NCBI GenBank assembly: GCA_027490465.1
Contig: JAIXXZ010000112.1
Span: forward strand, 8,052 to 40,051
DNA: 32,000 bases
Direction of reading: 5' to 3'
Origin: Oxalobacteraceae bacterium
Lineage (GTDB): Bacteria; Pseudomonadota; Gammaproteobacteria; Burkholderiales; Burkholderiaceae_D
The notes beneath the pieces are model-generated. The model ran no database searches and was not told the DNA's origin. It saw only the letters and a list, made by a program, of their open reading frames with translations. Positions 7,036 to 17,444 of this stretch are shown piece after piece. The translations under genes were made by a program, and so were the position numbers. Within the stretch, counting starts at the first letter, position 1. Every line of letters starts with the position of its first letter.

Positions 7036-7318
7036 AAATGATTCGTAGCTCCTCGACTCGGGGGCGGCGATGGCCTTGGTTGCTTTAGAGCTGGGCTGGC
7101 CGGTGACTGGCCTCGATGTGAAGGGTTTGATGATCTATGAAGACGGCAACGGTCGTGAGCACGCTAGACAGGCCGTTCCCTGCACGGATTTTCCCTTGCA
7201 GCAGATCAGGCTATACGCGTGCTGGGACACCGAGCACTGGGTGATCATGCTGCCCAGCGAGTATTAAAACGAGATCGAGCACTGAACTACACGTCCAGTG
7301 CCCATTGATCCCAACCAA

Positions 7319-7759
7319 TTATTTCTTGAAACCCGCTTTCAAGCTACCGCTTGCGGCTTCAATCTGAGCGTCCAGCTCGCCTGTTTCAACCGCAGACTTT
7401 ACCGTCTCGATTGCGGTGACCAAATCATCCAGATTGGCCACTTCAATGGCGTTCTTGCCTTTGGCAATATCCAGCACGCGTGATCCATAGCGTACTGAAA
7501 AACAAAGCTTGCCATTGTCGCCAGTGAACCACCACGGCCGCACTCGTTTGGGTGCGTCGATGATCACGCGCTCACCGGTTTCAGTGTTGCGTACAGATTT
7601 CCTGCGAACCGGTGCGAACGTTTCACCAGACTTTTGGGATCGTGCCAGCTGCAACTGCTCCCATAGTTTATCGCTCAACTTATTTCTTCGAACCACAATC
7701 GCAGGCAAGGCAGTGGGCTTGCGGGCTTCGACCAATTTCAGCTTGCTTAGTGCGCTCAT
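7319..7759 (-). CDS. Hypothetical small basic protein (possible DNA-binding or regulatory role given the adjacent repeat array)
   Basis: 146-aa ORF with a strong SD (GGAGGA 4 nt upstream of the ATG on the minus strand). Divergent from the hexamer array. No family recognised with certainty. Confidence 0.7.
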   Translation of the reverse strand: MSALSKLKLVEARKPTALPAIVVRRNKLSDKLWEQLQLARSQKSGETFAPVRRKSVRNTETGERVIIDAPKRVRPWWFTGDNGKLCFSVRYGSRVLDIAKGKNAIEVANLDDLVTAIETVKSAVETGELDAQIEAASGSLKAGFKK

Positions 7760-7918
7760 TTGTTCCTCCTATTTGGGTTAAGAGCACACTTACTTTATGA
7801 CTGATTTTTGGGCAGGACGACCGCGTTTTTGGATCAATTTGTCCAAAAGAGCGGAAATCAGCCTAATTTTCACTGCATTTTTCGTGGGTTTTCTTGTCTC
7901 AGGCATAAATATTTGTGC

Positions 7919-8170
7919 GAGTTGCTTTGTTCTAGTTGCGAGTTGCAGTTGCTAGAAGAAGAAAAACAGTTGCAGTTGCTAGAGAGTTGCAGTTGCTAGA
8001 GAGTTGCAGTTGTTGAGTTGTGTTGCTGAGGTAAATGAGTAGCCATGAGCAGCAACTCGAGACCAGCAACTTCCCTTTTGGGATCTGCCACTGGCAACTC
8101 AGCAACAGATCAGCAACTGTTTTTCTTCTTCTGCAACTGCAACTATTCCTGCAACCAGAAACCAGCAACT
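7919..8170. repeat. Strand-segregated hexamer array (AGTTGC on the left arm, GCAACT on the right arm), including 17-bp tandem iterons and a 32/33-bp inverted repeat
   Basis: - Left arm: 9 perfect AGTTGC copies at 7920, 7934, 7941, 7947, 7968, 7974, 7985, 7991 and 8002, plus degenerate copies extending to 8026.
- Right arm: 7 perfect GCAACT copies at 8052, 8066, 8094, 8113, 8133, 8139 and 8165, plus 2 degenerate copies.
- The 17-bp unit AGTTGCAGTTGCTAGAG is repeated at 7968, 7985 and (degenerate) 8002.
- 7941-7973 is the reverse complement of 8113-8144 except for a 1-nt indel. Confidence 0.9.
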
Positions 8171-8194
8171 GCACAAACTATCAAGGAGAAGATA

Positions 8195-8725
8195 ATGAGA
8201 GAAGCAGTAATCACGAGATCAGCAGAAATTAACCCAGTAGTCATCACGCAAGCACAAGCTGCTAAACCCGCAGAACGAGAAATCGCCATACGCGGCTTTA
8301 TCAATGAACGATTTGGCAGCACCTATGGACAAGGGCTTTTTCGCCGCGCAGTCTACAACGGCTCCATTGAGCTACGAAACCCATTTCAGAAATATCTGGT
8401 GGACTTCTTCACCTATGCCTATTGGGAAGTCAAAGCGCGGTCGGATCAGCAGATCAAGACCGTGAATGACATGCTGTCAGCTGGTATGGATAGTGATCCC
8501 GATATCCTGTTTTCTTGGTTGCAGCACTACGATCCAGTAACCAAGCACAAGTCAGCAGTTGCAGGCTACGCGGTGTATCACACCAAGACCAACGAAGTGC
8601 ATGTAAGTATCAACGATCCCGAGCGAGATGTAGTGGAGCAGTGGTGGCTTGATGCTCGCGCCTGCGCCAATCCAGGGCTAAAAAAACCAGCGTTTATTGC
8701 GGCCAATGTGGATCTCAACAGCTGA
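8195..8725 (+). CDS. Hypothetical protein (176 aa)
   Basis: In-frame ATG at 8195 preceded by AAGGAG (8183-8188). The longer 8045 start would translate through the hexamer repeats and has no SD. No recognisable motif. Confidence 0.65.
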   Translation: MREAVITRSAEINPVVITQAQAAKPAEREIAIRGFINERFGSTYGQGLFRRAVYNGSIELRNPFQKYLVDFFTYAYWEVKARSDQQIKTVNDMLSAGMDSDPDILFSWLQHYDPVTKHKSAVAGYAVYHTKTNEVHVSINDPERDVVEQWWLDARACANPGLKKPAFIAANVDLNS

Positions 8726-8918
8726 GCTGGGGCCCAGTGAAATAATTATGAAATTTGCAATAAAAGCCAGCCCAGTGAGCAAAACCCACAGCTCGCTGCA
8801 CTGGGTTTTGCACAGCAGGGCGCTAAAACGCGCTACAAGCGCTTTTTTGATGGCGTCTAGTACTGCACAAGCCCAGTAGCTGAATAAATAGCTTGTAGTG
8901 CTGATTTGACGCTTTAGG

Positions 8919-8941
8919 TTATCCACAGCAGCTGTGGATAA
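8919..8941. promoter_or_regulatory. Two convergent perfect DnaA boxes forming a 23-bp perfect palindrome
   Basis: TTATCCACAGC-A-GCTGTGGATAA. Each arm contains the consensus DnaA box TTATCCACA. No flanking T-run, so it is not a typical intrinsic terminator. Confidence 0.6.
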
Positions 8942-9046
8942 CGATCAGTTAACGGGTTGCAAAACTGCTGACAGCGTGGGTTTGATCGGCGTGCATGCAG
9001 ATTAAGCAGCGTGTGGGATTTCTCCCACAGAATGACAGCAAGCAAA

Positions 9047-9076
9047 CGCATAAGAAAATTCAACTTTTCTTATGCG
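9047..9076. repeat. Perfect 12-6-12 palindrome, candidate recombinase core-type site
   Basis: CGCATAAGAAAA (9047-9058), TTCAAC spacer, TTTTCTTATGCG (9065-9076). It lies about 130 bp upstream of the small tyrosine recombinase gene. No T-run on either strand. Confidence 0.45.
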
Positions 9077-9203
9077 CTGTTGCTAAGTCATTGATTCTTG
9101 GAAGATCTGCGAAATTTGCAACCAACAAAAAAAGAGGTCGTCCATTTTGGAAAAAGAAAACACACTACAAGCGGGTGTTTTATTTATCTGAAAGGACAAA
9201 CAA

Positions 9204-9770
9204 ATGGCCCAAGCAAAAACGTTAACGCAAGCAGAATTTGATCAAGTGATGCGGTACATTAGTACCAAGAAATTCGCACTTCGAAATCGAGTGATGTTCC
9301 TGATTAGTCATTGGTCAGGCATGCGTGTGGGTGAGATTGCCAGTCTCAAGGTGAAGGATATCCTCAATCCCGATGGCACGATCCGCGCAGAAGTACGATT
9401 GTTACCCGAGCAAACCAAAGGGCGCCACGCTCGAACTGTTTATCTACCTGCCAAGCTGCAAGAAGAGCTGCGTGCCTATATTCGCTGCCGCTGCATCAAC
9501 AGCGACATTGAACCGGTGTTTTACACCAGCGGTGGCAAGCCATTTACTGCCAACAGTTTATGCCAGCTATTTTTCTGGTTGTATCGGCGAGCAGGGATTG
9601 CAGGTGCCAGTAGCCATAGCGGTCGCCGTAGTTTTATCACAGCACTGGCAGCCAAAGGCATATCAGTTAGGGTGCTGGCGTCACTCGCCGGGCATAGAGA
9701 TATTTCGGTCACACAGAAATATATCGATGTGCATGACGACATGAAGAGAGCGGCGGTGGAACTAATATGA
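9204..9770 (+). CDS. Minimal tyrosine recombinase (phage-integrase-family catalytic domain only)
   Basis: 188-aa ORF. Catalytic signature seen: R in SGMRVGEIASL, H-x-x-R in SSHSGRRSFITALA, and H...Y in LAGHRDISVTQKYIDV. There is no N-terminal core- or arm-binding domain. Confidence 0.85.
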   Translation: MAQAKTLTQAEFDQVMRYISTKKFALRNRVMFLISHWSGMRVGEIASLKVKDILNPDGTIRAEVRLLPEQTKGRHARTVYLPAKLQEELRAYIRCRCINSDIEPVFYTSGGKPFTANSLCQLFFWLYRRAGIAGASSHSGRRSFITALAAKGISVRVLASLAGHRDISVTQKYIDVHDDMKRAAVELI

Positions 9771-9773
9771 GCA

Positions 9774-10151
9774 CTACGGGTCACGTTTGACCCAGCGGTG
9801 ATCGTCGCCCCAGCCATCCTCAGGATCTTTCTGGCCGTGTACAGCCTCGTAATCCCGGTCCGCCTTGCGTTGAGCATCGGCATAGATCATGTAGGCTTTA
9901 GCGATATCCTCGTCATTTGGGTAGATTGTCTGTGCGCTTCGAGCAATCTTGGCTGCTAAGTATTTTTGCACCCATGCATGTTGCCAACTTTTTGGGTAGA
10001 CCTTCACAGGCGCGGGTGCAGGTGTGGCTGGTTTGTTCCCGGGCTGCGGAGTAGGTGGTGTGTTTGCTTGCAGCTGATGTTGTCTGACCTGTTGCTGCTG
10101 ACTGATTTTTAATACGGGTTTGGCTTGCGGGGCGAATTCATAAAATCTCAT
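9774..10151 (-). CDS. Hypothetical protein with a Pro/Gln-rich N-terminal half
   Basis: 125-aa ORF with GAGGAG SD upstream of the ATG on the minus strand. No family recognised. Confidence 0.55.
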   Translation of the reverse strand: MRFYEFAPQAKPVLKISQQQQVRQHQLQANTPPTPQPGNKPATPAPAPVKVYPKSWQHAWVQKYLAAKIARSAQTIYPNDEDIAKAYMIYADAQRKADRDYEAVHGQKDPEDGWGDDHRWVKRDP

Positions 10152-10192
10152 GGCTGACTCCTCTCAGCATATTTATCGTGACTGAAGCAGAG

Positions 10193-11221
10193 TCACCGGG
10201 CAGGATTGACGGCTAGACTAGCGCTGTGCCGTCCCGCACGCGCTGCCTTTTGAGATGCCATGAAGGGAAAGTCCATGTTGGCGTACTCAGTAAGAATCGC
10301 TACACCATCAGCCACCGTGGTTTGCCTGTCAACAGAAAGGCGCCGCTGCTGCAGGGGATCCAAAAACTCAAACTCACGAACCAGCCAATCTGGCCGAAAC
10401 CTCAGACAATCACGCCTTGCAGCCTCAAGATCACGCTGCTGAGCAACTGACCATCTGGGTGTGGCAGTCACCGCGGCTTTGCCGGGAAATCGGCCTAATT
10501 CCACGTTAGCGATCAGAAGGGCTGCATCGGCAAGATTCTGCTGTGTGGTTACGCGCGTACAGGATTGCTTGAATCGCGCCCGCTGCTGGCTATCTGTCTT
10601 ATCGGGCAAGTTTCGAGGCGATAACCGCAGCGATACACCGATTTCATACAGACGCCAGCGACAGTCATGGCTTTGGCGTACCAATTTAGACAGGCACCAG
10701 GTCTGGTAGGCGGTGAGCAAGCGACGCCGGCTCTTGGTGGGATAGTCCAGTAGCTGAAACAGTGGTGATTGTCTGCCTAATCTTTTGCTCACCAGATTCT
10801 TATCCAGCAAAAGCTTTAATTGCACTAGCGCAGAATCGGTGGATAAGCCATCCGGTATACGCACGATTAATCCACCCAAATCTAGCTGGTGAGTCAAATC
10901 AGCGGATTGCACCACACTCACTGGATCGCCTGATCTGCAATGAGTTTCCATTTGTCCAAACAAACGCTCGGCATTCACTGCCCACCACTGATCCAAGCGA
11001 TCAAATGCATAGATATCACCAAAGCACTGATAGATATTTTGTAATTGCAGGTCTTGTGTGTCGCCGCGCTGTTGGCAACACCACCAATAATCTTCGCTGA
11101 GTCTCAGGTAAGCGATCCACCAAAATAGCTGACTACAGCGCAGCAGTCTAGGGTTGGTTATGTTTTTGAGAACTTCTTGCTCGCTGATCCAACCTCCTGA
11201 ATTCTGTACCCATTTTGGCAT
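10193..11221 (-). CDS. Hypothetical Trp-rich protein (342 aa), possible island regulator
   Basis: Long ORF with an SD-like GGGGGA. The N-terminal motif FWWIAYLRLSEDYWW and an internal CRWRLYEIGVSLRLSP (HTH-like) give a vague resemblance to element-encoded activators. No firm family assignment. Confidence 0.65.
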   Translation of the reverse strand: MPKWVQNSGGWISEQEVLKNITNPRLLRCSQLFWWIAYLRLSEDYWWCCQQRGDTQDLQLQNIYQCFGDIYAFDRLDQWWAVNAERLFGQMETHCRSGDPVSVVQSADLTHQLDLGGLIVRIPDGLSTDSALVQLKLLLDKNLVSKRLGRQSPLFQLLDYPTKSRRRLLTAYQTWCLSKLVRQSHDCRWRLYEIGVSLRLSPRNLPDKTDSQQRARFKQSCTRVTTQQNLADAALLIANVELGRFPGKAAVTATPRWSVAQQRDLEAARRDCLRFRPDWLVREFEFLDPLQQRRLSVDRQTTVADGVAILTEYANMDFPFMASQKAARAGRHSASLAVNPAR

Positions 11222-11337
11222 GTGTCCCCCGAAAAATTCTTTATTAATTTTGCGGCCGCGGACGGAAAATTTATCGTATCTCTGGATAGTCTTTCTGCAC
11301 GGCAGATTGCGCCGTTGAATAATATTTAGGAGGAATC

Positions 11338-12381
11338 ATGCGAACACAGACAGAGACAAAAGTTGAAAATGGTGTTTACAAGAATGGCGCCATTTCTGTA
11401 CCCAAAAATGGTCGGGTCATTATTGAGGAGGACGTGGGAGATTTAGAGCAGTTTGATCTTCAGTCTTTCATGAGCTCGGCGATGGAAAATCAGGCTGGAC
11501 GAGCAGTCAAACCATCCGATAAGAAAAATCGCGATCAGCAGGTAGCAGAGTTTATTAGTGAAGGAGAAAACTTATTTTCGCTCAGCGAGAAATATCAAGC
11601 AGAGTTTGTGGTTCGTGGCAATCAAGCGCTGTACGAGCTATTGGGATCGATTTACAGTCTTGGTCTTAGAATTGAGCAAAGCGAAAATAGCAATGAAATC
11701 GTTCGCTTGATGCAAAAGAAAATAAAAGCAGATCATGACATCAAAATTGGCTCAGCGGCCAGCGCTATGTCGACCATGGTGCAGTATGTGATTCGCTCAG
11801 ATAAGCGAACCTGTTCAAGGTATGCCAAAGTGCTAGAAGTAGCCATGGCTGAAGATTTATCGCCGGAGGAGCTTCCTGCGTATATTACCCGCCGTGGTGG
11901 AGTTAGCCAGATTCGTGAGATTGAATCTGAGGCTATGGCTAAAAAGCAAGGTAGCAAAGAAAGCGCTGCTCGACTGGCCTTGCTCAGGGAGTTTTATAAG
12001 TACTACGCCTTCCAAAATACCTTCCAACAGCTGACCTTCGATCAGGAAGTGACGGTTCATAATTCTGACAATACTGGTGCGGCAGAGACTGCTCAATTTG
12101 CCTTTTTTATGGCAGCTGAAGATCCATATAAAAAGGGGCATTTCAAAATCTTAGGCGCTCATGATCTCGGTAAGAATTTCGAGGATGTTGTGTTCAAGTA
12201 TTTAACGAAAAGCGCACCATCAAGTCTGAGGGTGTTGGAGGCAGGTTTGAGAAACCTTCAAAAAAAGCTTTTGCAAGGAAATATATCTGCCAGCTTGAGG
12301 GATCATCTGAAATTAGAAATTAGCAAGCCTTTGAAGTATGCCCAGCAAGAAGCAATTGAAATGGAAGTTAAAGAAGTTTAG
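11338..12381 (+). CDS. Hypothetical protein (347 aa)
   Basis: Strong SD (AGGAGG, 4 nt spacing). Divergent from 10193-11221 and followed by a canonical terminator. No catalytic motif recognised. Confidence 0.75.
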   Translation: MRTQTETKVENGVYKNGAISVPKNGRVIIEEDVGDLEQFDLQSFMSSAMENQAGRAVKPSDKKNRDQQVAEFISEGENLFSLSEKYQAEFVVRGNQALYELLGSIYSLGLRIEQSENSNEIVRLMQKKIKADHDIKIGSAASAMSTMVQYVIRSDKRTCSRYAKVLEVAMAEDLSPEELPAYITRRGGVSQIREIESEAMAKKQGSKESAARLALLREFYKYYAFQNTFQQLTFDQEVTVHNSDNTGAAETAQFAFFMAAEDPYKKGHFKILGAHDLGKNFEDVVFKYLTKSAPSSLRVLEAGLRNLQKKLLQGNISASLRDHLKLEISKPLKYAQQEAIEMEVKEV

Positions 12382-12387
12382 TGGCAA

Positions 12388-12410
12388 GGGGAGGAAACTC
12401 CCCATTTTTT
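12388..12410 (+). terminator. Rho-independent terminator
   Basis: GGGGAG (12388-12393), GAAA loop, CTCCCC (12398-12403), then ATTTTTT. Confidence 0.75.
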
Positions 12411-12432
12411 GTATTTTCGTAGGGAGTAATTT

Positions 12433-12930
12433 ATGACTACCTATTACATTTGTCGTTCTGCTGACTTGAACGACCTTGAACTGCCTCAAACGTTTGAAGA
12501 GCAATTGGCGTGCGAAATCGTCACAGCTGCACGTATATATGACGAAATATCCGCAGATTTATTGGCGATCCAGGCTGATTCTGAAAATGGTATGTATGCT
12601 CAACTCAAAGGTGCCGCTCTGTTTTCTATGGAATTAAATGATTCAAACATTCAGATTTGGCAAACTGAAGCCAAAAAAATTTATGAGTACCTACTTGGTC
12701 CAGCAGAAGAAAACAGTCGTATCTGGAGCGCGTTTGGGACGCTACACGCTGAGATGGAAGACTTTGAGGCCTTATGTAATCAATCAAAAAATTTTAACGA
12801 ACTAGCTGAGGATTTTTCGTCTTTTGTGGCGTCTCAAATCGATGAGAGTATCCGTGAAGAGCAAAGCGCATTCGCAGATATCATGGAAGATCTTTATTCA
12901 ATCGAGGAACTTAAAACCGTGACCAGCTGA
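12433..12930 (+). CDS. Small, strongly acidic hypothetical protein (165 aa)
   Basis: GGGAG SD 6 nt upstream. By my hand count there are about 33 Asp+Glu against about 9 Lys+Arg. Confidence 0.7.
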   Translation: MTTYYICRSADLNDLELPQTFEEQLACEIVTAARIYDEISADLLAIQADSENGMYAQLKGAALFSMELNDSNIQIWQTEAKKIYEYLLGPAEENSRIWSAFGTLHAEMEDFEALCNQSKNFNELAEDFSSFVASQIDESIREEQSAFADIMEDLYSIEELKTVTS

Positions 12931-12946
12931 CAGCGAATTGGCTAGG

Positions 12947-13426
12947 TCAATTGGACAGCGCTGCCAAGGTCAAATACTGCTCAAGTTCAATCAGAGCTGC
13001 ACGAGATGCCATGGCGTTGCCAGCTGACGCGATCTCAAGGCGGTGATTACGATTGGCTGTGGTGATGTTTATTGTGACCTTGCCAGCCTCTAGTTTGAAG
13101 GTGTGGGTTATTTCGTAGCGGGGCAGATTCTCTAGCCGTTCTTTGTGGGAGGTAACTCGAGTGGTTGCGATCTCTGAAAGTGATTTGGGTAGATCCCAAG
13201 CGTGCTTGATCCGATTCTCGTAGTCGGCTAGAGCGTCTTGGGCAGTTTCCCGGGCCACATCACGTCCCACGCGCTGGACTTCAGGAATGCTGTCGGTAAT
13301 ATCGATCCCGTTATCCAAGCGGTGAATGGCTTCGTTATAAAAGCGAATGGCAGTCAGGCCATGATGAATCCGGTCCAAGGCGGACTCAGCATAGTCGTTG
13401 AAATAGCGGGTTAGGGCGTCGCTCAT
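12947..13426 (-). CDS. Hypothetical protein (159 aa), probably translated from a leaderless mRNA
   Basis: ORF immediately downstream of the integrase on the same strand. A near-consensus promoter ends 6 nt before its ATG and there is no SD. Confidence 0.6.
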   Translation of the reverse strand: MSDALTRYFNDYAESALDRIHHGLTAIRFYNEAIHRLDNGIDITDSIPEVQRVGRDVARETAQDALADYENRIKHAWDLPKSLSEIATTRVTSHKERLENLPRYEITHTFKLEAGKVTINITTANRNHRLEIASAGNAMASRAALIELEQYLTLAALSN

Positions 13427-13432
13427 GGCTTG

Positions 13433-13460
13433 ATTATAGGCACATGAGCGGGTGGGTCAA
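13433..13460 (-). promoter_or_regulatory. Near-consensus sigma70-type promoter positioned for a leaderless transcript
   Basis: Read on the minus strand: -35 TTGACC (13460-13455), a 16-nt spacer, -10 TATAAT (13438-13433), then 6 nt (CAAGCC) before the ATG at 13426. Confidence 0.5.
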
Positions 13461-13476
13461 CCAGAAGGAACTTGGG

Positions 13477-14856
13477 CTATTTGGGCGGTGGCTTGCGCTG
13501 TTTTAAGCGCTCGTTGAAGTCTTTGGACACATCCTGGCTGATGACCACCATGGGCAGCGTCAATCCCGTGCTCATCTCGATCAGCTGCATGATGTTGTTG
13601 GGCATTTGAGCGGCCATCAAAGCGCGGATTTGGGCAGCTTGGTCGGATCCGTCGCCATCCACGGTACCCGCAAACTGCTTGGCCTTCATCAGTGGCGTTA
13701 GGTGGCTGTAGTGCTTGGTGATCATGAGTACTGAGGTACCCATTTGCTCAGCCAGATCGTGGATCGGGATGCTCTCCAAAAGCCGTTGTGTGGCGTAGTA
13801 GTGACGAAGACTGTACAAGCTGCGCTCTTTGCCAGTCACCGGGCAGATCAAGAGACCAGATTCCTCCAGCATTTGCCGGAAGGGTTTATTAAAGTTGTCA
13901 GGCAGGTTGCCCGAGGGCATACGGAAGACCCGTTTGTCGATTTTTTTCTTTAACAATTGCTGAAGCGATAGATGAGCAAGATCAGGGCTCATCTGTCGAA
14001 GTTTTTCTAGCAGCAGCCAGCAGCTATTGTGCGCTACGAAGTTTCTCGCCCCGCGTTTGCCTTTTTGTAGCCGGAAATGCAGTATGGGTTGACCATCACG
14101 CATCTCCACATCGATGTGCCGCCATTCGAGGAATTCTGCCTCTGTGCCAGGGCGCATGCCTGTGGCAGCCATGAAGGGCACATACACAGACAGCAGGGTT
14201 CGCAAGGTGCGAGTGATAGCGGTGCGGCCATCATCGATGAATTTGGGGAAGTAGGCGATTAAAGTTTCCAGCTCTTCTTGGCTGAATTCTGCACGACGAT
14301 CGCTATCGCCACCGGTGTTCTTTGTAGCAGGGCGCTGTCTCTCACCCATGTAGCCGCGCTCGATGGCTTCATCCAACACAAGATTGAATGCAGCATTGTG
14401 ATTGTTCTGTGCGCTGCCGGATAGCTCGCGTCCCACTTTGTCACGGCGCCAGCGATGAAATTCCGATATCAGTGCTGGTGTGATGCAGTCCACGTTGAAC
14501 TTGCCGTAGAACGGGATCAGGTAAAGCTTGATGGCTGAGATGTAGTCTTTGGCACTGGGTTTCGCAGTACCTGCTTTGGCCTCATCTTCCAGTCGATGCT
14601 GAACGATTTCAGCGATGGGTTTGAACTTCTTGCTGATAACAGGTCTGCCTTCTTCATGATCGAAGGTAGCTTTCATCCAGATACGTTCTGCGATCTTCTT
14701 GGCTTTGTCGAGGTCAGTGGTGTTTGTGCTGACTCTGAACCATTTTTTGACGCCATCTATCTTGTAATGCGCTTGCCATTTCCGACTGCCGTCACGCATC
14801 ACTAAGCGCAGCTGCTCGGTGCGTAAAACGAGGGTTTGAGAGGAGAGGACTCGCAT
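13477..14856 (-). CDS. int: Site-specific tyrosine integrase (phage integrase family)
   Basis: 459-aa ORF. It has an N-terminal arm-binding-like segment (RDGSRKWQAHYKIDGVKKWFRVST) and catalytic blocks ATGMRPGTEAEFLEWRHID, YSLRHYYATQ and MITKHYSHL. It sits next to the tRNA-derived att core. Confidence 0.9.
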   Translation of the reverse strand: MRVLSSQTLVLRTEQLRLVMRDGSRKWQAHYKIDGVKKWFRVSTNTTDLDKAKKIAERIWMKATFDHEEGRPVISKKFKPIAEIVQHRLEDEAKAGTAKPSAKDYISAIKLYLIPFYGKFNVDCITPALISEFHRWRRDKVGRELSGSAQNNHNAAFNLVLDEAIERGYMGERQRPATKNTGGDSDRRAEFSQEELETLIAYFPKFIDDGRTAITRTLRTLLSVYVPFMAATGMRPGTEAEFLEWRHIDVEMRDGQPILHFRLQKGKRGARNFVAHNSCWLLLEKLRQMSPDLAHLSLQQLLKKKIDKRVFRMPSGNLPDNFNKPFRQMLEESGLLICPVTGKERSLYSLRHYYATQRLLESIPIHDLAEQMGTSVLMITKHYSHLTPLMKAKQFAGTVDGDGSDQAAQIRALMAAQMPNNIMQLIEMSTGLTLPMVVISQDVSKDFNERLKQRKPPPK

Positions 14857-14911
14857 ATGGGCAGTATACGAGCGAGAAAAGCAGAGCGCAACCAGCGGCA
14901 GCTATATTGAT

Positions 14912-14930
14912 TGTGTTATAACTGTGTTAT
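14912..14930. repeat. Direct repeat TGTGTTAT x2 (11-bp period), candidate integrase arm-type sites left of the att core
   Basis: TGTGTTAT at 14912-14919 and 14923-14930. Related GTGTAAT pairs occur on the other side of the core. Confidence 0.5.
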
Positions 14931-14944
14931 TAAGAAGTTAAATT

Positions 14945-14971
14945 AAAAGCAAGCCCTAAGTGCTTGCTTTT
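14945..14971. terminator. Bidirectional hairpin terminator immediately 3' of the tRNA fragment
   Basis: AAAAGCAAGC (14945-14954), 7-nt loop, GCTTGCTTTT (14962-14971). A GC core is flanked by an A-run and a T-run. Confidence 0.55.
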
Positions 14972-14982
14972 AAAAGGATTTT

Positions 14983-15027
14983 TGGCTCCCCGACCTGGAC
15001 TCGAACCAGGGACCTGCGGATTAACAG
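14983..15027 (-). other. 3' 45 nt of a tRNA-Asn(GUU) gene (anticodon loop to CCA), i.e. an att core. The 5' half of the tRNA is absent.
   Basis: The reverse complement reads CTGTTAA-TCCGC-AGGTC-CCTGG-TTCGAGT-CCAGG-TCGGGGA-G-CCA. This gives the anticodon loop with GTT, the T-arm and the acceptor 3' strand. The sequence 5' of the loop (GCTTG) cannot pair with TCCGC, and no D-arm or acceptor 5' strand follows. Confidence 0.8.
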
Positions 15028-15053
15028 CAAGCCAGGCGCGTGGAAAAATGTTT

Positions 15054-15111: not shown

Positions 15112-15134
15112 AAAAGTTGCATAATGCAACTTTT
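15112..15134. repeat. Perfect 23-bp palindrome (11-1-11) containing AGTTGC/GCAACT
   Basis: AAAAGTTGCAT-A-ATGCAACTTTT. It lies about 190 bp upstream of the 15322 ORF. Confidence 0.7.
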
Positions 15135-15321: not shown

Positions 15322-16158
15322 ATGGCAACCTTTGAGTTATTTCGGTACCAACTGCTTCCCGCATCCCAGGAGCATCAGCAGGATTTATTTGGTGAATCTC
15401 TGACGCTTGATCAGATCAAAGAAAAAAAGAATGAAATTTTCTGGGGGCTATTACAAGAAGGTGCATTGTTCAACTCAGAGAAACTACTACAGAAAACGCT
15501 TTTTTCAGATGGGTACTGGTTTTCAATAAAGCTTGCACCTAAGCGCAAAACCGTTATCAATAAACCTGATTTCAGAAGTGAATCGGTAGAAAATTGGCCA
15601 CACATTACAGTGTTCATAAATAACGATCCTACAGTACAAATCATTGGCGTTTCACGGAATCAACGTGCTTTTAAAGACTCGATTTCAGTAGTTCGTACAC
15701 TGGAAAAAAGAATCAGTAGGCCACTAAGAGATCGCGGACTTACAGTTCAATTTCAGAGCATATACGAGCAAACTGAGTTTTGGCAGCTAATGGAGCGGCA
15801 GCGTGGCCGAGTGGAGAGAGTACGTTTTGAGATGATCTCGCCGAACATGGCAAACATTTCTGGAGTGTTGAAGGTGGATTTGCGGCGACTAAATCAAGAG
15901 TCCAACTCTCAGAAAACATCACTTGAATTAGAGGCTGTAGCAGGCTCGTCACTTCAAATTGATCAATCTGACGGGTTAATTTCGAGTTGTGTAGATTATT
16001 CAGCTAACGGTGGTGGTGATATCAAAGTGAAAATTAAAGGCTTTAAAAAGACAATTCGAACATCTACATCAGTTAGAACGATTGAAGCTGATGAAATTAT
16101 TTTCGAGGATGCTAATTGTGAATCTTTAGATCTTCTGCTCAAAGGTGTACTAAAGTGA
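15322..16158 (+). CDS. Hypothetical soluble protein (278 aa), first gene of a two-gene operon
   Basis: Long ORF in low-GC DNA. Its stop overlaps the GTG start of the next gene (GTGA at 16155-16158). No nucleotide-binding or nuclease motif recognised. Confidence 0.75.
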   Translation: MATFELFRYQLLPASQEHQQDLFGESLTLDQIKEKKNEIFWGLLQEGALFNSEKLLQKTLFSDGYWFSIKLAPKRKTVINKPDFRSESVENWPHITVFINNDPTVQIIGVSRNQRAFKDSISVVRTLEKRISRPLRDRGLTVQFQSIYEQTEFWQLMERQRGRVERVRFEMISPNMANISGVLKVDLRRLNQESNSQKTSLELEAVAGSSLQIDQSDGLISSCVDYSANGGGDIKVKIKGFKKTIRTSTSVRTIEADEIIFEDANCESLDLLLKGVLK

Positions 16159-16580
16159 TTTCTTGGTTCCGAAACATTTTTATCTATCTGGTTTGCGCTA
16201 ATGCTGCAACTGGATTTCTAAATTGGATGGGTTCGCCACTGATCTCTGATCTATCAAAGAATCTCACAGCTATCGTATTAGCTTTGCTTGCTATAAATGT
16301 TCAGACAACTGCTGTGATCGCCGTAAAGCTTCGCGATATTCTTGATAAATCCGGTGGAAATGCCAATGCAACGATTGAACAGTTTCGATTGGCGATCATT
16401 GAGCAAGCTGTACTCTTATTGCTTGCCTTGTTTCTTCAAGGAACAATTGGTGCTCAGTCCTTTCAACTCTCACCTTTAACTCTTAGTATCTGCTGTTTGT
16501 TTATATTTTTTGCAACTGTTCATATTTTTCTTGATACGTCCATCGGACTGCTCATAGCATTATTTCCTGAAAATACCTGA
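16155..16580 (+). CDS. Small integral membrane protein (141 aa, about 4 predicted TM helices)
   Basis: Hydrophobic stretches fall at roughly residues 6-24, 37-57, 83-103 and 108-137. Translationally coupled to the upstream ORF. Confidence 0.7.
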   Translation: MISWFRNIFIYLVCANAATGFLNWMGSPLISDLSKNLTAIVLALLAINVQTTAVIAVKLRDILDKSGGNANATIEQFRLAIIEQAVLLLLALFLQGTIGAQSFQLSPLTLSICCLFIFFATVHIFLDTSIGLLIALFPENT

Positions 16581-16643
16581 TTCGAACTTTGATTTTGAAT
16601 CAGAGTATTTTGCGGGACTCTCCCGCACCTAGTCGAACTAATT

Positions 16644-17444
16644 TCAAAGATTTAATCCGTAAGGTGCAAAGAACTTAGCCCATCGATCTGAGTCATACAT
16701 CTCACCATCAATGCTAGCGTCAAACATCTCACGGATCACTTTGACCGCTTCAACATTAGGTTTCGGTGGTAATCGCGAGCCGAGATTTTTAAGTCCGAAC
16801 TTATAAACTGCTTCTCGTTCAGTGCTACTGAGGGCTGACTCTTTGAATGCCCAATACGATTGGTCATAGTTGGCGTAACCACTTTTTTCAGTTTTTTTAA
16901 TAGTGAAGTCCATCCCTCGTTCGATGTCGCAGGGAGACTCTAGTAGGTCTCTGTGCATCAGCATGTTTAGCACTAGGTTGTGAATATGTGGGCCAATGAT
17001 GAACTGACGAATTGGATTGTTGGGAGCATCTGATTCACGAAATGGTGATTCGCGGACGAACCCTTGATATAAGTAGCTACGCTTTTTCCAATAGTGTCGC
17101 GCCATTTCTTCAAGGGTTGGATCTTTCATCCATGTTCTAACTTCTTGAAGAACTGGACATTCTTCGCCGTACATCTGCATGCATGGGACCATAACTTTTA
17201 GAGGTTTAATTTCAGTTTTCCCTTTGATGCCAGCAAATGGAAGCTTGATCATGTCTCGCTCAACCCAAAAAAAAGGGTTGTCAGTGTTTCTATCAGGAAG
17301 GAAGCGAAGTGTTGCCGTCGCGTTTAGTGCAATTTCCCAATGCTGATATACGGATGTATCTGTACGAGATTTTGAAACTAACTTTGCTAATGCAGGATTC
17401 TTTGCAGTTAACAAGTTACGAATTTTTTCGAGGGAATTAGTCAT
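16644..17444 (-). CDS. Phage T4 gp32-like single-stranded DNA-binding protein (core domain only)
   Basis: By-eye alignment to T4 gp32 (ours vs T4):
- ATATLRFLPDRNTDNPFFWV vs [21 protein letters not shown]
- GEECPVLQEV vs YDSCPVCQYI
- KKRSYLYQGFVRESP vs KRKTSYWANILVVKDP
- GMDFTIKKTEKSGYANYDQSYW vs [22 protein letters not shown]. Confidence 0.85.
   Translation of the reverse strand: MTNSLEKIRNLLTAKNPALAKLVSKSRTDTSVYQHWEIALNATATLRFLPDRNTDNPFFWVERDMIKLPFAGIKGKTEIKPLKVMVPCMQMYGEECPVLQEVRTWMKDPTLEEMARHYWKKRSYLYQGFVRESPFRESDAPNNPIRQFIIGPHIHNLVLNMLMHRDLLESPCDIERGMDFTIKKTEKSGYANYDQSYWAFKESALSSTEREAVYKFGLKNLGSRLPPKPNVEAVKVIREMFDASIDGEMYDSDRWAKFFAPYGLNL

Follow-up and report, generated by a model that had tools for sequence, protein, structure and literature searches.

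The intergenic array and its two flanking genes

The DNA analysed here, hereafter the window, is a stretch of 32,000 nucleotides (nt) from an Oxalobacteraceae bacterium (assembly GCA_027490465.1, contig JAIXXZ010000112.1, positions 8,052 to 40,051 of the forward strand). Two divergent genes of this window, a DUF6641 gene (7319-7759, minus strand, 146 amino acids (aa), isoelectric point (pI) around 10) and a gene that we call B (8195-8725, plus strand, 176 aa, ribosome-binding site (RBS) AAGGAG at 8183-8188), are separated by an intergenic region of 435 bp (7760-8194). This region carries an array of very short DNA words split into two opposed arms, i.e., one arm on each strand around a conserved centre. 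Among related loci, B is the obligate partner of this array, whereas the DUF6641 gene is its usual divergent neighbour and is dispensable for it.

On its DUF6641 side, the array is bounded by an AT-rich block, ATAAATATTTGTGCG (7905-7919; consensus ATAAATAyTTtTGCG in the family of related arrays), and the first word starts immediately after it. The left arm (7920-8026, plus strand) holds 10 GTTGC cores, 9 of which belong to a complete AGTTGC hexamer (starts at 7920, 7934, 7941, 7947, 7968, 7974, 7985, 7991 and 8002; span 7920-8007), as well as two near-copies, AGTTGT, at 8008 and 8015, and a purine tract, AGAAGAAGAAAAA (7954-7966). Within this arm, a 17-nt unit, AGTTGCAGTTGCTAGAG, is repeated in tandem 2.6 times on the plus strand (7968-8012, 100% matches with Tandem Repeats Finder), and a further copy is found at 7940-7956. 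The centre, or switch point (8027-8051), contains a conserved block, TAAATGAGTAGCCATGA (8032-8048; family consensus CAAATGAGTArCyCTGA). Beyond it, the right arm (8052-8170, minus strand) carries 9 GCAAC cores, 7 of them within GCAACT, i.e., AGTTGC on the minus strand (starts at 8052, 8066, 8094, 8113, 8133, 8139 and 8165; span 8052-8170), 3 degenerate copies (GAGAC, GCCAC and GAAAC) and two pyrimidine tracts, CTTTTGGGATCT (8075-8086) and TTTTTCTTCTTCT (8120-8132). From the end of this arm, 25 nt lead to the start codon of B. No hexamer of the array lies on the wrong side of the switch point, and the rest of the window (around 31.7 kb) contains only 18 copies of the hexamer. A long inverted repeat (7941-8144) is superimposed on the two arms: 7941-7973 mirrors 8113-8144 with one indel, in the form of a perfect 20-nt pair (7954-7973/8113-8132) and a perfect 12-nt pair (7941-7952/8133-8144). 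The size of the intergenic region, the hexamer counts and their segregation, the 17-bp unit and the mirrored segments had all been described in a previous reading of the letters (the sequence-only reading), and every one of these numbers was confirmed.

Among 95 distinct arrays, that of the window is the richest in words. Indeed, the median number of cores is 7 with a strict definition and 15 when degenerate copies are counted, and the window, with 19 and 23, respectively, represents the maximum in both cases. The AGTTGCAGTTGCTAGAG repeat is also the sole exact tandem unit of at least 12 nt among these arrays, and the closest relatives (L081-L085, whose B proteins are 78-85% identical) possess 6 + 9 cores and lack it. 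For these two reasons, the 17-nt "iterons" are a recent local expansion and homogenisation and not a defining feature of the array; the iteron interpretation previously given to this unit is not supported, the duplication being present only in the window. On the other hand, the A-tract/T-tract part of the inverted repeat is conserved in the clade of the window, including these closest relatives.

The array itself is, judging from its reading frames, non-coding, since the open reading frames (ORFs) that cross it are not conserved. A small ORF running through the right arm (8035-8232, or 8045 as an alternative start) was rejected as a gene; it is reduced to only 5 codons in one relative (L010). 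Public relatives of B are often over-called upstream through the GCAAC repeats (the window equivalent would be 8045-8194), as observed for P0122, P0124, P0187, P0190, P0204 and P0213, and the resulting N-termini are of low complexity, with QNP, ATA, SN and QQ runs.

The B protein consists of a conserved core of around 150 aa, starting from residue ~27, preceded in the clade of the window by a variable N-terminal extension of around 26 aa. R33, R51, K66 and K119 are invariant basic residues of B. This extension (8195-8272) begins with MREAVITR, similar to the usual start of the family, MREIAIRG, and this resemblance suggests that the 5' end of B may have been duplicated in this clade. The B family is small, with 99 representatives in 1.84 billion proteins, all of them stand-alone. 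One match of 1,655 aa was discarded as spurious (a eukaryotic HYR/SRCR protein), and the B locus as a defence system was rejected in the lack of any PADLOC match.

Conservation of the words and linkage of the array to B

A profile search with DUF6641, retaining one genome per species, yielded 78 loci, mostly from Polynucleobacter, other freshwater Burkholderiales and Methylophilaceae, with several copies in some genomes; the families that host these elements are Burkholderiaceae, Comamonadaceae, Methylophilaceae and Oxalobacteraceae. Polynucleobacter sp. AP-Capit-er-40B-B4 and P. sinensis MWH-HuW1 are two of the isolates in which they occur. Approximately 35 of these 78 loci present a divergent B homologue, 315-435 bp upstream. 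The sequence-only reading had proposed to look in other genomes for the same array beside homologues of the flanking ORFs, and around 100 related loci of freshwater Betaproteobacteria do share the design, together with B. Their common plan comprises the AT block, the left arm, the centre, the mirrored right arm and the RBS of B. Across this family, the left-arm words are GTTGC and its degenerate forms GTTAC, GTCGC, GTGGC and GTTTC, accompanied by a purine tract, while those of the right arm are GCAAC, GTAAC and GCGAC, accompanied by pyrimidine tracts, and the RBS of B is located around 25 nt past the last word. The GTTGC orientation is always B-distal and the GCAAC orientation always B-proximal in all related loci, and the orientation of the centre is identical in every locus inspected.

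We quantified this segregation in 22 non-redundant loci, where the word consensus is aGTTGCt and the spacing between neighbours varies from 6 to 46 bp. The core sites are located on the expected side of the switch point in 163 of 165 cases, a value that none of 2000 permutations reached and that is far beyond chance. Moreover, the pairwise identity is 0.78 in core columns vs 0.39 in spacer columns (p = 1e-15), and 0.94 vs 0.77 in a second clade (p = 1e-4). Because word columns are far better conserved than spacers within two clades, the words themselves are, from these alignments, under purifying selection. The outer AT block is among the best conserved columns of the alignments, and the centre block is conserved too. 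These results support the array as a genuine, selected set of short recognition words, of the kind that proteins would bind cooperatively.

The hexamer AGTTGC/AGCAAC ranks first in the upstream region of essentially every locus that has B, and of no locus that lacks it. Two apparent exceptions were noted, one in which B is destroyed by the insertion of an IS3-family element (L026) and one located at a contig edge (L015). When the gene order differs, the array follows B. Indeed, in L073, where B is co-directional with DUF6641, a full array with both arms still precedes B, and in L049, L065 and L067, extra DNA parts DUF6641 from the array and never B from the array. The AT boundary block also stays with the array and B in these four loci, where DUF6641 is located elsewhere. 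As a control for the bias of a locus collection based on DUF6641, metagenomes were searched with the exact central 20-mer of the array. This search gave 78 loci, with B immediately downstream in 66 of the 68 that could be evaluated and a divergent DUF6641 in 63 of 65. The two exceptions to B, like all 18 loose matches of the central block to viral contigs, are coincidental, i.e., located inside coding sequences and devoid of array. No gene family other than B was found to be specific to array-bearing elements among the related loci, and the array is missing from sibling elements that lack B. We show by this comparison of loci that the unit is "array + B" and not "DUF6641 + array", the array being inseparable from B.

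The favoured word itself shifts with the B lineage: L073 prefers GCGAC, the second module of L051 prefers GTTAC, and L021 and L027 prefer GTTTC. It remains constant within clades. Such a drift between lineages, combined with conservation within clades, is expected of a co-evolving partner encoded by the element and not of a fixed host factor. The earlier proposal that either flanking gene could encode the binding protein does not hold: a single flanking gene, that of the 176-aa B protein, is tied to the array. DUF6641, which occurs in many array-less loci, was rejected as the cognate protein, the array being absent from all DUF6641 loci without B and some close DUF6641 relatives being found in array-less loci. 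Most DUF6641 proteins from loci with an array group with one another, as linked genes should.

The DUF6641 protein is modelled with confidence as a helix-sheet-helix, without significant structural match in the PDB. Its gene appears to possess its own promoter, outside the array. Indeed, a near-palindromic word, GG[T/A]C[G/A]ACC, occupies a fixed position (-63 to -65) ahead of the DUF6641 start codon, whether or not the locus has B (L002-L078), and in relatives, read in the DUF6641 sense, it lies within the spacer of a promoter-like site, TTGGCA/TTGACA-N17-TAAAnA, that sits by the gene. In the window, the word is GGACGACC (7815-7822), 63 nt upstream of the start codon. A second copy is found around 60 nt upstream of the gene of a small tyrosine recombinase, sRec, in loci with and without B; in the window it reads GGTCGTCC (9136-9143) and is located in the gap between B and sRec. 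The two copies thus flank the [array + B] unit, and the word may serve as an operator common to both genes or as a site of recombination. In L065, the array and DUF6641 are separated by an inserted extra gene of 173 aa, with one copy of GATGGACAACCGAAATCTG on each side of it (locus positions ~5425 and ~5936). As this duplicated segment includes the word GGACAACC, the latter may be a site-specific insertion point for cassettes.

The integrative element that carries the array

The window is chromosomal, with a glycosyltransferase cluster to the left of 7036 and, to the right of 17650, genes for an iron-dependent alcohol dehydrogenase (Fe-ADH), a LysR regulator, thiolase/CoA-transferase proteins and an ABC transporter. 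Because these chromosomal flanks come with a tyrosine integrase and a remnant of a tRNA-derived attachment (att) site, we identify the locus, from its gene content, as a tRNA-integrating element of around 8 kb (~7040-15030), decayed at its left end, and not as a plasmid. The plasmid-iteron hypothesis of the sequence-only reading did not survive this result; moreover, the locus has no DNA match in PLSDB or INPHARED, B was found on no plasmid, and neither B nor DUF6641 was found on IMG/VR contigs.

At its left end, the element carries a DUF6876 gene (7070-7267) truncated against the glycosyltransferase cluster, followed by DUF6641, the array and B. The gap between B and sRec (8726-9203) is a conserved non-coding segment with strongly conserved DNA blocks and, in relatives, stops in all frames. 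An ORF of 76 aa (8995-9225) was considered as a hidden small DNA-binding protein and rejected on account of these stops, its similarity being that of conserved non-coding DNA; this ORF is probably not a gene. A small tandem repeat, GCGCTAAAA, is present at 8820-8843. The sRec gene (9204-9770, plus strand) is a backbone gene of the element family and encodes a tyrosine recombinase of 188 aa reduced to its catalytic domain, with the length of Fim invertases and an Xer-like sequence; it is found in 53 of the 78 related loci, alongside the full-length integrase. Four or five uncharacterised genes separate sRec from the integrase. The cargo and backbone families of this part (window 10193-12381; clusters C4, C5, C6, C11 and C17 of the related loci) have no assignment in Pfam, PHROG, NCBIfam or PADLOC; C4 is a family of AAA ATPases and several other families are 230-350 aa long. 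The large tyrosine integrase (13477-14856, minus strand, 459 aa) lies at the end of the element, directly followed by the 3' remnant of a tRNA-Asn(GUU) gene (14983-15030, minus strand), which constitutes an att-type end.

Neither an intact tRNA nor a second copy of the tRNA-Asn remnant is present in the window, which has no Rfam match. Given the missing second att copy, the missing intact tRNA and the truncation of DUF6876, the copy of the window looks decayed and is probably immobile. One relative (L081) is a metagenome contig of 8,188 bp that contains just this gene set, with its linear break inside the same tRNA-derived repeat.

Two features lie outside the element. The first is a perfect palindrome, AAAAGTTGCAtaaTGCAACTTTT (15112-15134), which contains the same hexamer and is located just past the att remnant; we rejected it as part of the system, as it is outside the element and not conserved near the integrases of related loci, and it may represent a hairpin of the terminator type, or be there by coincidence. 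The second is another block of low GC content (~0.40; 15322-17444), with three uncharacterised ORFs, one of which (16644-17444, minus strand) gives a weak match to gp32-like single-stranded DNA (ssDNA)-binding proteins. This block may correspond to an adjacent island within a tandem series.

Between sRec and DUF6641, the place of the array and B is taken by other genes in sibling elements. In 8 loci, this slot is occupied by a family of 166-196 aa proteins, C13 (L023, L045, L048, L050 and L061) and C30 (L056, L071 and L078), which present the three HUH endonuclease motifs, I to III (THAVTLT, vHyHcAiG and GWlgY..K). Three of three members match the Pfam family REP_ORF2-G2P with E = 5e-4 to 4e-3, values that fall below the Pfam cut-off, and the HUH assignment finds no PDB support. 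On these motifs, C13/C30 are probably small rolling-circle Rep or relaxase proteins, a hint that replication modules can occupy this slot. A slot protein of 518 aa (L060) was rejected as a polymerase, with no PDB, Pfam or PHROG support. The same intergenic space also receives unrelated cargo, such as a HicAB-like pair, a miniature inverted-repeat transposable element (MITE) and other ORFs.

A proposed protein-binding platform upstream of B, its alternatives and known systems

From the anatomy of the array and comparative genomics, we tentatively propose that it is a multi-site platform on duplex DNA that controls B, with B as the most likely binder. This proposal falls short of an even chance, and it contains three distinct inferred steps: that a protein binds the array, that this protein is B, and that the transcription of B is what is controlled. 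The platform would be dyad-symmetric and offer about 16-23 short words (consensus aGTTGCt, degenerate GT[T/C/G][G/A/T]C). A sequence-specific protein would read these words on duplex DNA, occupying many adjacent sites, so that the two arms would be loaded in opposite orientation around the conserved centre. B is the most likely candidate for this role because it alone co-occurs with the array, because gene and array move together and because the word drifts with the B lineage. As the array fills the space from the AT block to the RBS of B, and as the DNA beyond the array is unrelated in L073, the promoter of B is expected to lie within the array, and the occupancy of the platform would have to set B expression. 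B would hence bind its own upstream array in an autoregulatory loop, and the outcome would be a control of B transcription, probably its repression in the integrated state.

Several observations weigh against this proposal. The AlphaFold2 model of B (pLDDT 84, pTM 0.78), mostly beta and beta-barrel-like, has no significant match in the PDB (the best one is the GID4 beta-barrel, with TM ~0.4 and E ~0.1) or in BFVD, and neither the model nor the fold searches reveal a helix-turn-helix (HTH), a ribbon-helix-helix (RHH) or another known DNA-binding fold. Profile searches against PDB sequences returned nothing, B belongs to no family of Pfam, NCBIfam, PHROG or PADLOC, and no informative domain fusion exists among the 1.84 billion representatives. 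The family is mildly acidic (median pI 6.3), a charge that is mildly unfavourable to DNA binding. Concerning the DNA, no sigma-70-like promoter of B was detected in the array, by a tool and a script, whether in the window or, among 20 relatives, in 16 of them, so that an operator overlapping a promoter is not demonstrable; sigma-54 and extracytoplasmic function (ECF) promoter readings of the conserved blocks, made by eye only, gave nothing. An array of 250 bp and about 20 sites also exceeds most simple operators in size. Finally, in 12 of 19 loci, the complementarity between the arms exceeds what the word cores alone account for, and pure word recognition needs no such excess. The predicted folds of B and DUF6641, for their part, neither support nor exclude DNA binding.

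The main rival, rather unlikely in our view and compatible with the proposed platform, is that the excised element replicates from the array. B would be an initiator of a new type, loaded head-to-head on the two arms around the centre, the AT block would be the melting region, and the same binding would also autoregulate B. The size of the array (~250 bp, about 20 words), its dyad layout, its conserved centre and its AT-rich boundary block would suit an origin, as would the tight cis pair that B and the array form while moving as a unit, and the slot of sibling elements that holds proteins with three HUH Rep motifs. The equivalence of the slots is nevertheless weak evidence, because unrelated cargo inserts in the same intergenic space, and the HUH assignment itself has the limits mentioned above. 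B is moreover unlike any initiator and unrelated to C13/C30 (hhalign probability of 0.4%). No helicase or primase family is encoded in the element or in the backbone clusters, and no DnaA box or IHF consensus was found in 7760-8200, where the array is flanked by the conserved AT-rich block of 12-15 bp. No circular, multicopy or high-copy form of the element was seen, nor any copy on viral contigs or plasmids.

A second alternative, which we regard as distinctly unlikely, makes the array a binding region or a sponge for a host protein, such as a nucleoid-associated protein or a global regulator. B would then be a passenger whose expression or silencing depends on the host factor. The acidic B protein, without a DNA-binding signature, is in agreement with this scenario, and the absence of a canonical promoter fits a dependence on a host activator. 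One fixed host protein is however a poor match for elements that are spread over several families and whose word differs between lineages while remaining constant within each of them. To our knowledge, and following a literature search that was uninformative on this point, the words correspond to no known bacterial regulator motif, which also counts against a host factor.

The array could also act as a hairpin or a cruciform when the element is single-stranded, i.e., as a single-strand origin, an oriT-like site or an Frpo-type promoter. Folded as ssDNA, the array of the window (7915-8175) forms one long hairpin of -78 kcal/mol, compared with -38 +/- 3.7 for shuffled sequences (z about -11). 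Against controls in which the cores were kept and the spacers shuffled, the real sequence still has the better fold in 12 of 19 loci (z from -3 to -6.6), and the A-tract/T-tract mirror pairs are conserved. But four loci show no excess pairing, and diverged arrays share a consensus fold of only -8.3 kcal/mol, in which no pair is compensatory and the covariation term is unfavourable. The positions and the spacing of the words are not mirror-fixed, and no relaxase, conjugation or rolling-circle gene accompanies the B-type arrays. The same folds give no sign of an RNA strand bias: the sense strand gives the better fold in only 8 of 19 loci, the difference averages 0.5 kcal/mol, there is no G.U bias, and the right arm is unstructured as RNA (z = -0.5). 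The array is thus neither a conserved hairpin nor a strand-specific RNA, and a role in single-stranded form is quite improbable. The lack of consensus hairpin, of compensatory pairs, of RNA strand bias and of structure in the right-arm RNA points instead to a recognition on duplex DNA.

A partition centromere with a small binding protein of the ParR, ParG or omega type, as suggested by the sequence-only reading, has very little probability left. The direct and inverted blocks of short words upstream of a small gene do resemble the parH, parC and omega heptad arrays of plasmids such as TP228, pB171, R1 and pSM19035. But no ParA/ParM-type NTPase was found in the element of the window or in the 78 related loci, where the only ATPase family, C4, is a generic AAA family absent from the window. 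No RHH protein is encoded next door either: by secondary structure, neither the beta-barrel-like B nor the helix-sheet-helix DUF6641 is of this type, and no RHH family matches them. The locus is integrated in a chromosome and has no plasmid relatives.

A comparably small chance is left to the hypothesis that the words are arm-type accessory sites for one of the tyrosine recombinases of the element, in an attP-like region or an invertible switch. The array has the size of an attP, with opposed arms around a centre, the Fim-length sRec is encoded just downstream of B, and GGTCGACC-type words flank the [array + B] unit. However, sRec and the integrase are equally common in array-less elements, and the real att site is the tRNA-Asn remnant, unrelated to the centre, which differs from the situation of a lambda-type attP. 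The constant orientation of the centre gives no sign of inversion. Least probable of all is a 5' leader whose repeats would be bound at the RNA level, in the manner of TRAP or CsrA: both arms read GCAAC in the sense of the gene that they face and the right-arm RNA is accessible, but the left arm stays with B even when no gene lies on its far side (L073), the DUF6641 promoter-like site is downstream of this arm, the centre has no detectable promoter, and the strand bias expected of such RNAs is lacking.

A bolder extension, which we consider unlikely, is that B is the first member of a new class of sequence-specific DNA-binding proteins, beta-barrel-like in fold, which would assemble as two opposed files on a dyad of 5-bp words, and that the array and B constitute the replication/control module of previously undescribed small tRNA-integrating elements, through which cargo would pass between the abundant Betaproteobacteria of fresh water (Polynucleobacter, Limnohabitans, Methylopumilus and relatives). 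If B does bind the words, this would provide a new DNA-binding fold whose specificity code is already at hand, since the word variants co-vary with the B lineages. Should the array be an origin, the persistence of these small islands after excision, and their spread, would be accounted for. In both cases, about 100 natural variants of the array are available. The element family is common among freshwater bacteria that are ecologically dominant and have streamlined genomes.

Centromeres, operators and origins repeatedly make use of arrays of very short words that are bound cooperatively, and the known arrays rely on RHH or winged-helix proteins on plasmids and phages. The closest examples are the omega heptads (inc18, pSM19035) and the tetramer-box arrays of ParG (parH and OF of TP228), in which many words of 4-7 bp, direct and inverted, are also packed upstream of a small gene and read cooperatively on duplex DNA, with operator and higher-order roles joined. 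Their binders are, however, basic RHH dimers of around 70 aa, carried by plasmids together with a ParA ATPase. The candidate described here is, on the contrary, an acidic, beta-rich orphan of 150 aa, encoded by an integrated element without ParA or RHH, and its words are strictly split into two arms, with a unique conserved centre and a spacing of 6-46 bp.

Iteron origins (P1 incC-repA, pSC101 and R6K) likewise possess a cluster of sites directly upstream of the gene of the presumed binder, with an adjoining AT-rich block, and in P1 and pSC101 the binding of RepA autoregulates its expression. They differ by their conserved direct repeats of 17-22 bp with regular phasing, by their winged-helix Rep encoded next door and, usually, by their DnaA boxes, whereas the conserved unit here is 5-7 bp long and irregularly spaced, without DnaA boxes, and B is a mostly-beta protein without family. 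The polyomavirus core origin and the origins of Staphylococcus aureus pathogenicity islands (SaPIs) provide another parallel, with opposed pentamer or hexamer words around a centre and A/T tracts. The polyomavirus T antigen loads on inverted GAGGC pentamers and the SaPI Rep on two flanking iteron sets. These initiators carry a superfamily 3 (SF3) or Rep helicase, and the elements described here encode no helicase. Arrays of the Fur type are also made of adjacent 6-bp units that can be used in either orientation and extended. But Fur boxes are about 19 bp long, sometimes extended, lie over canonical promoters and are bound by a conserved host regulator, whereas the word described here drifts with the lineage of the element.

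At the scale of the whole element, the tRNA-anchored additive islands or tycheposon-like elements (PMC10872708) are similar in being small cargo elements of freshwater Betaproteobacteria, with tyrosine recombinases, insertion in tRNA genes and adjoining glycosylation islands; the passages of this article on tycheposons, tyrosine recombinases and tRNA make no mention of DUF6641, the B family or the word array. A literature search likewise gave nothing on DUF6641 and no informative match for the word, and the backbone (i.e., integrase, cargo, catalytic-domain-only recombinase, a slot for B or a Rep-like protein, and DUF6641) is, as far as we found, undescribed. In conclusion, cooperative arrays of short words were already known from omega heptads, ParG boxes, Fur hexamers and T-antigen pentamers. 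What sets the present array apart is the strict split of the words into two arms around a conserved centre, the obligate association with an orphan acidic protein that is not of the RHH type, and the location of this pair on undescribed integrative elements, spread in abundant freshwater bacteria.

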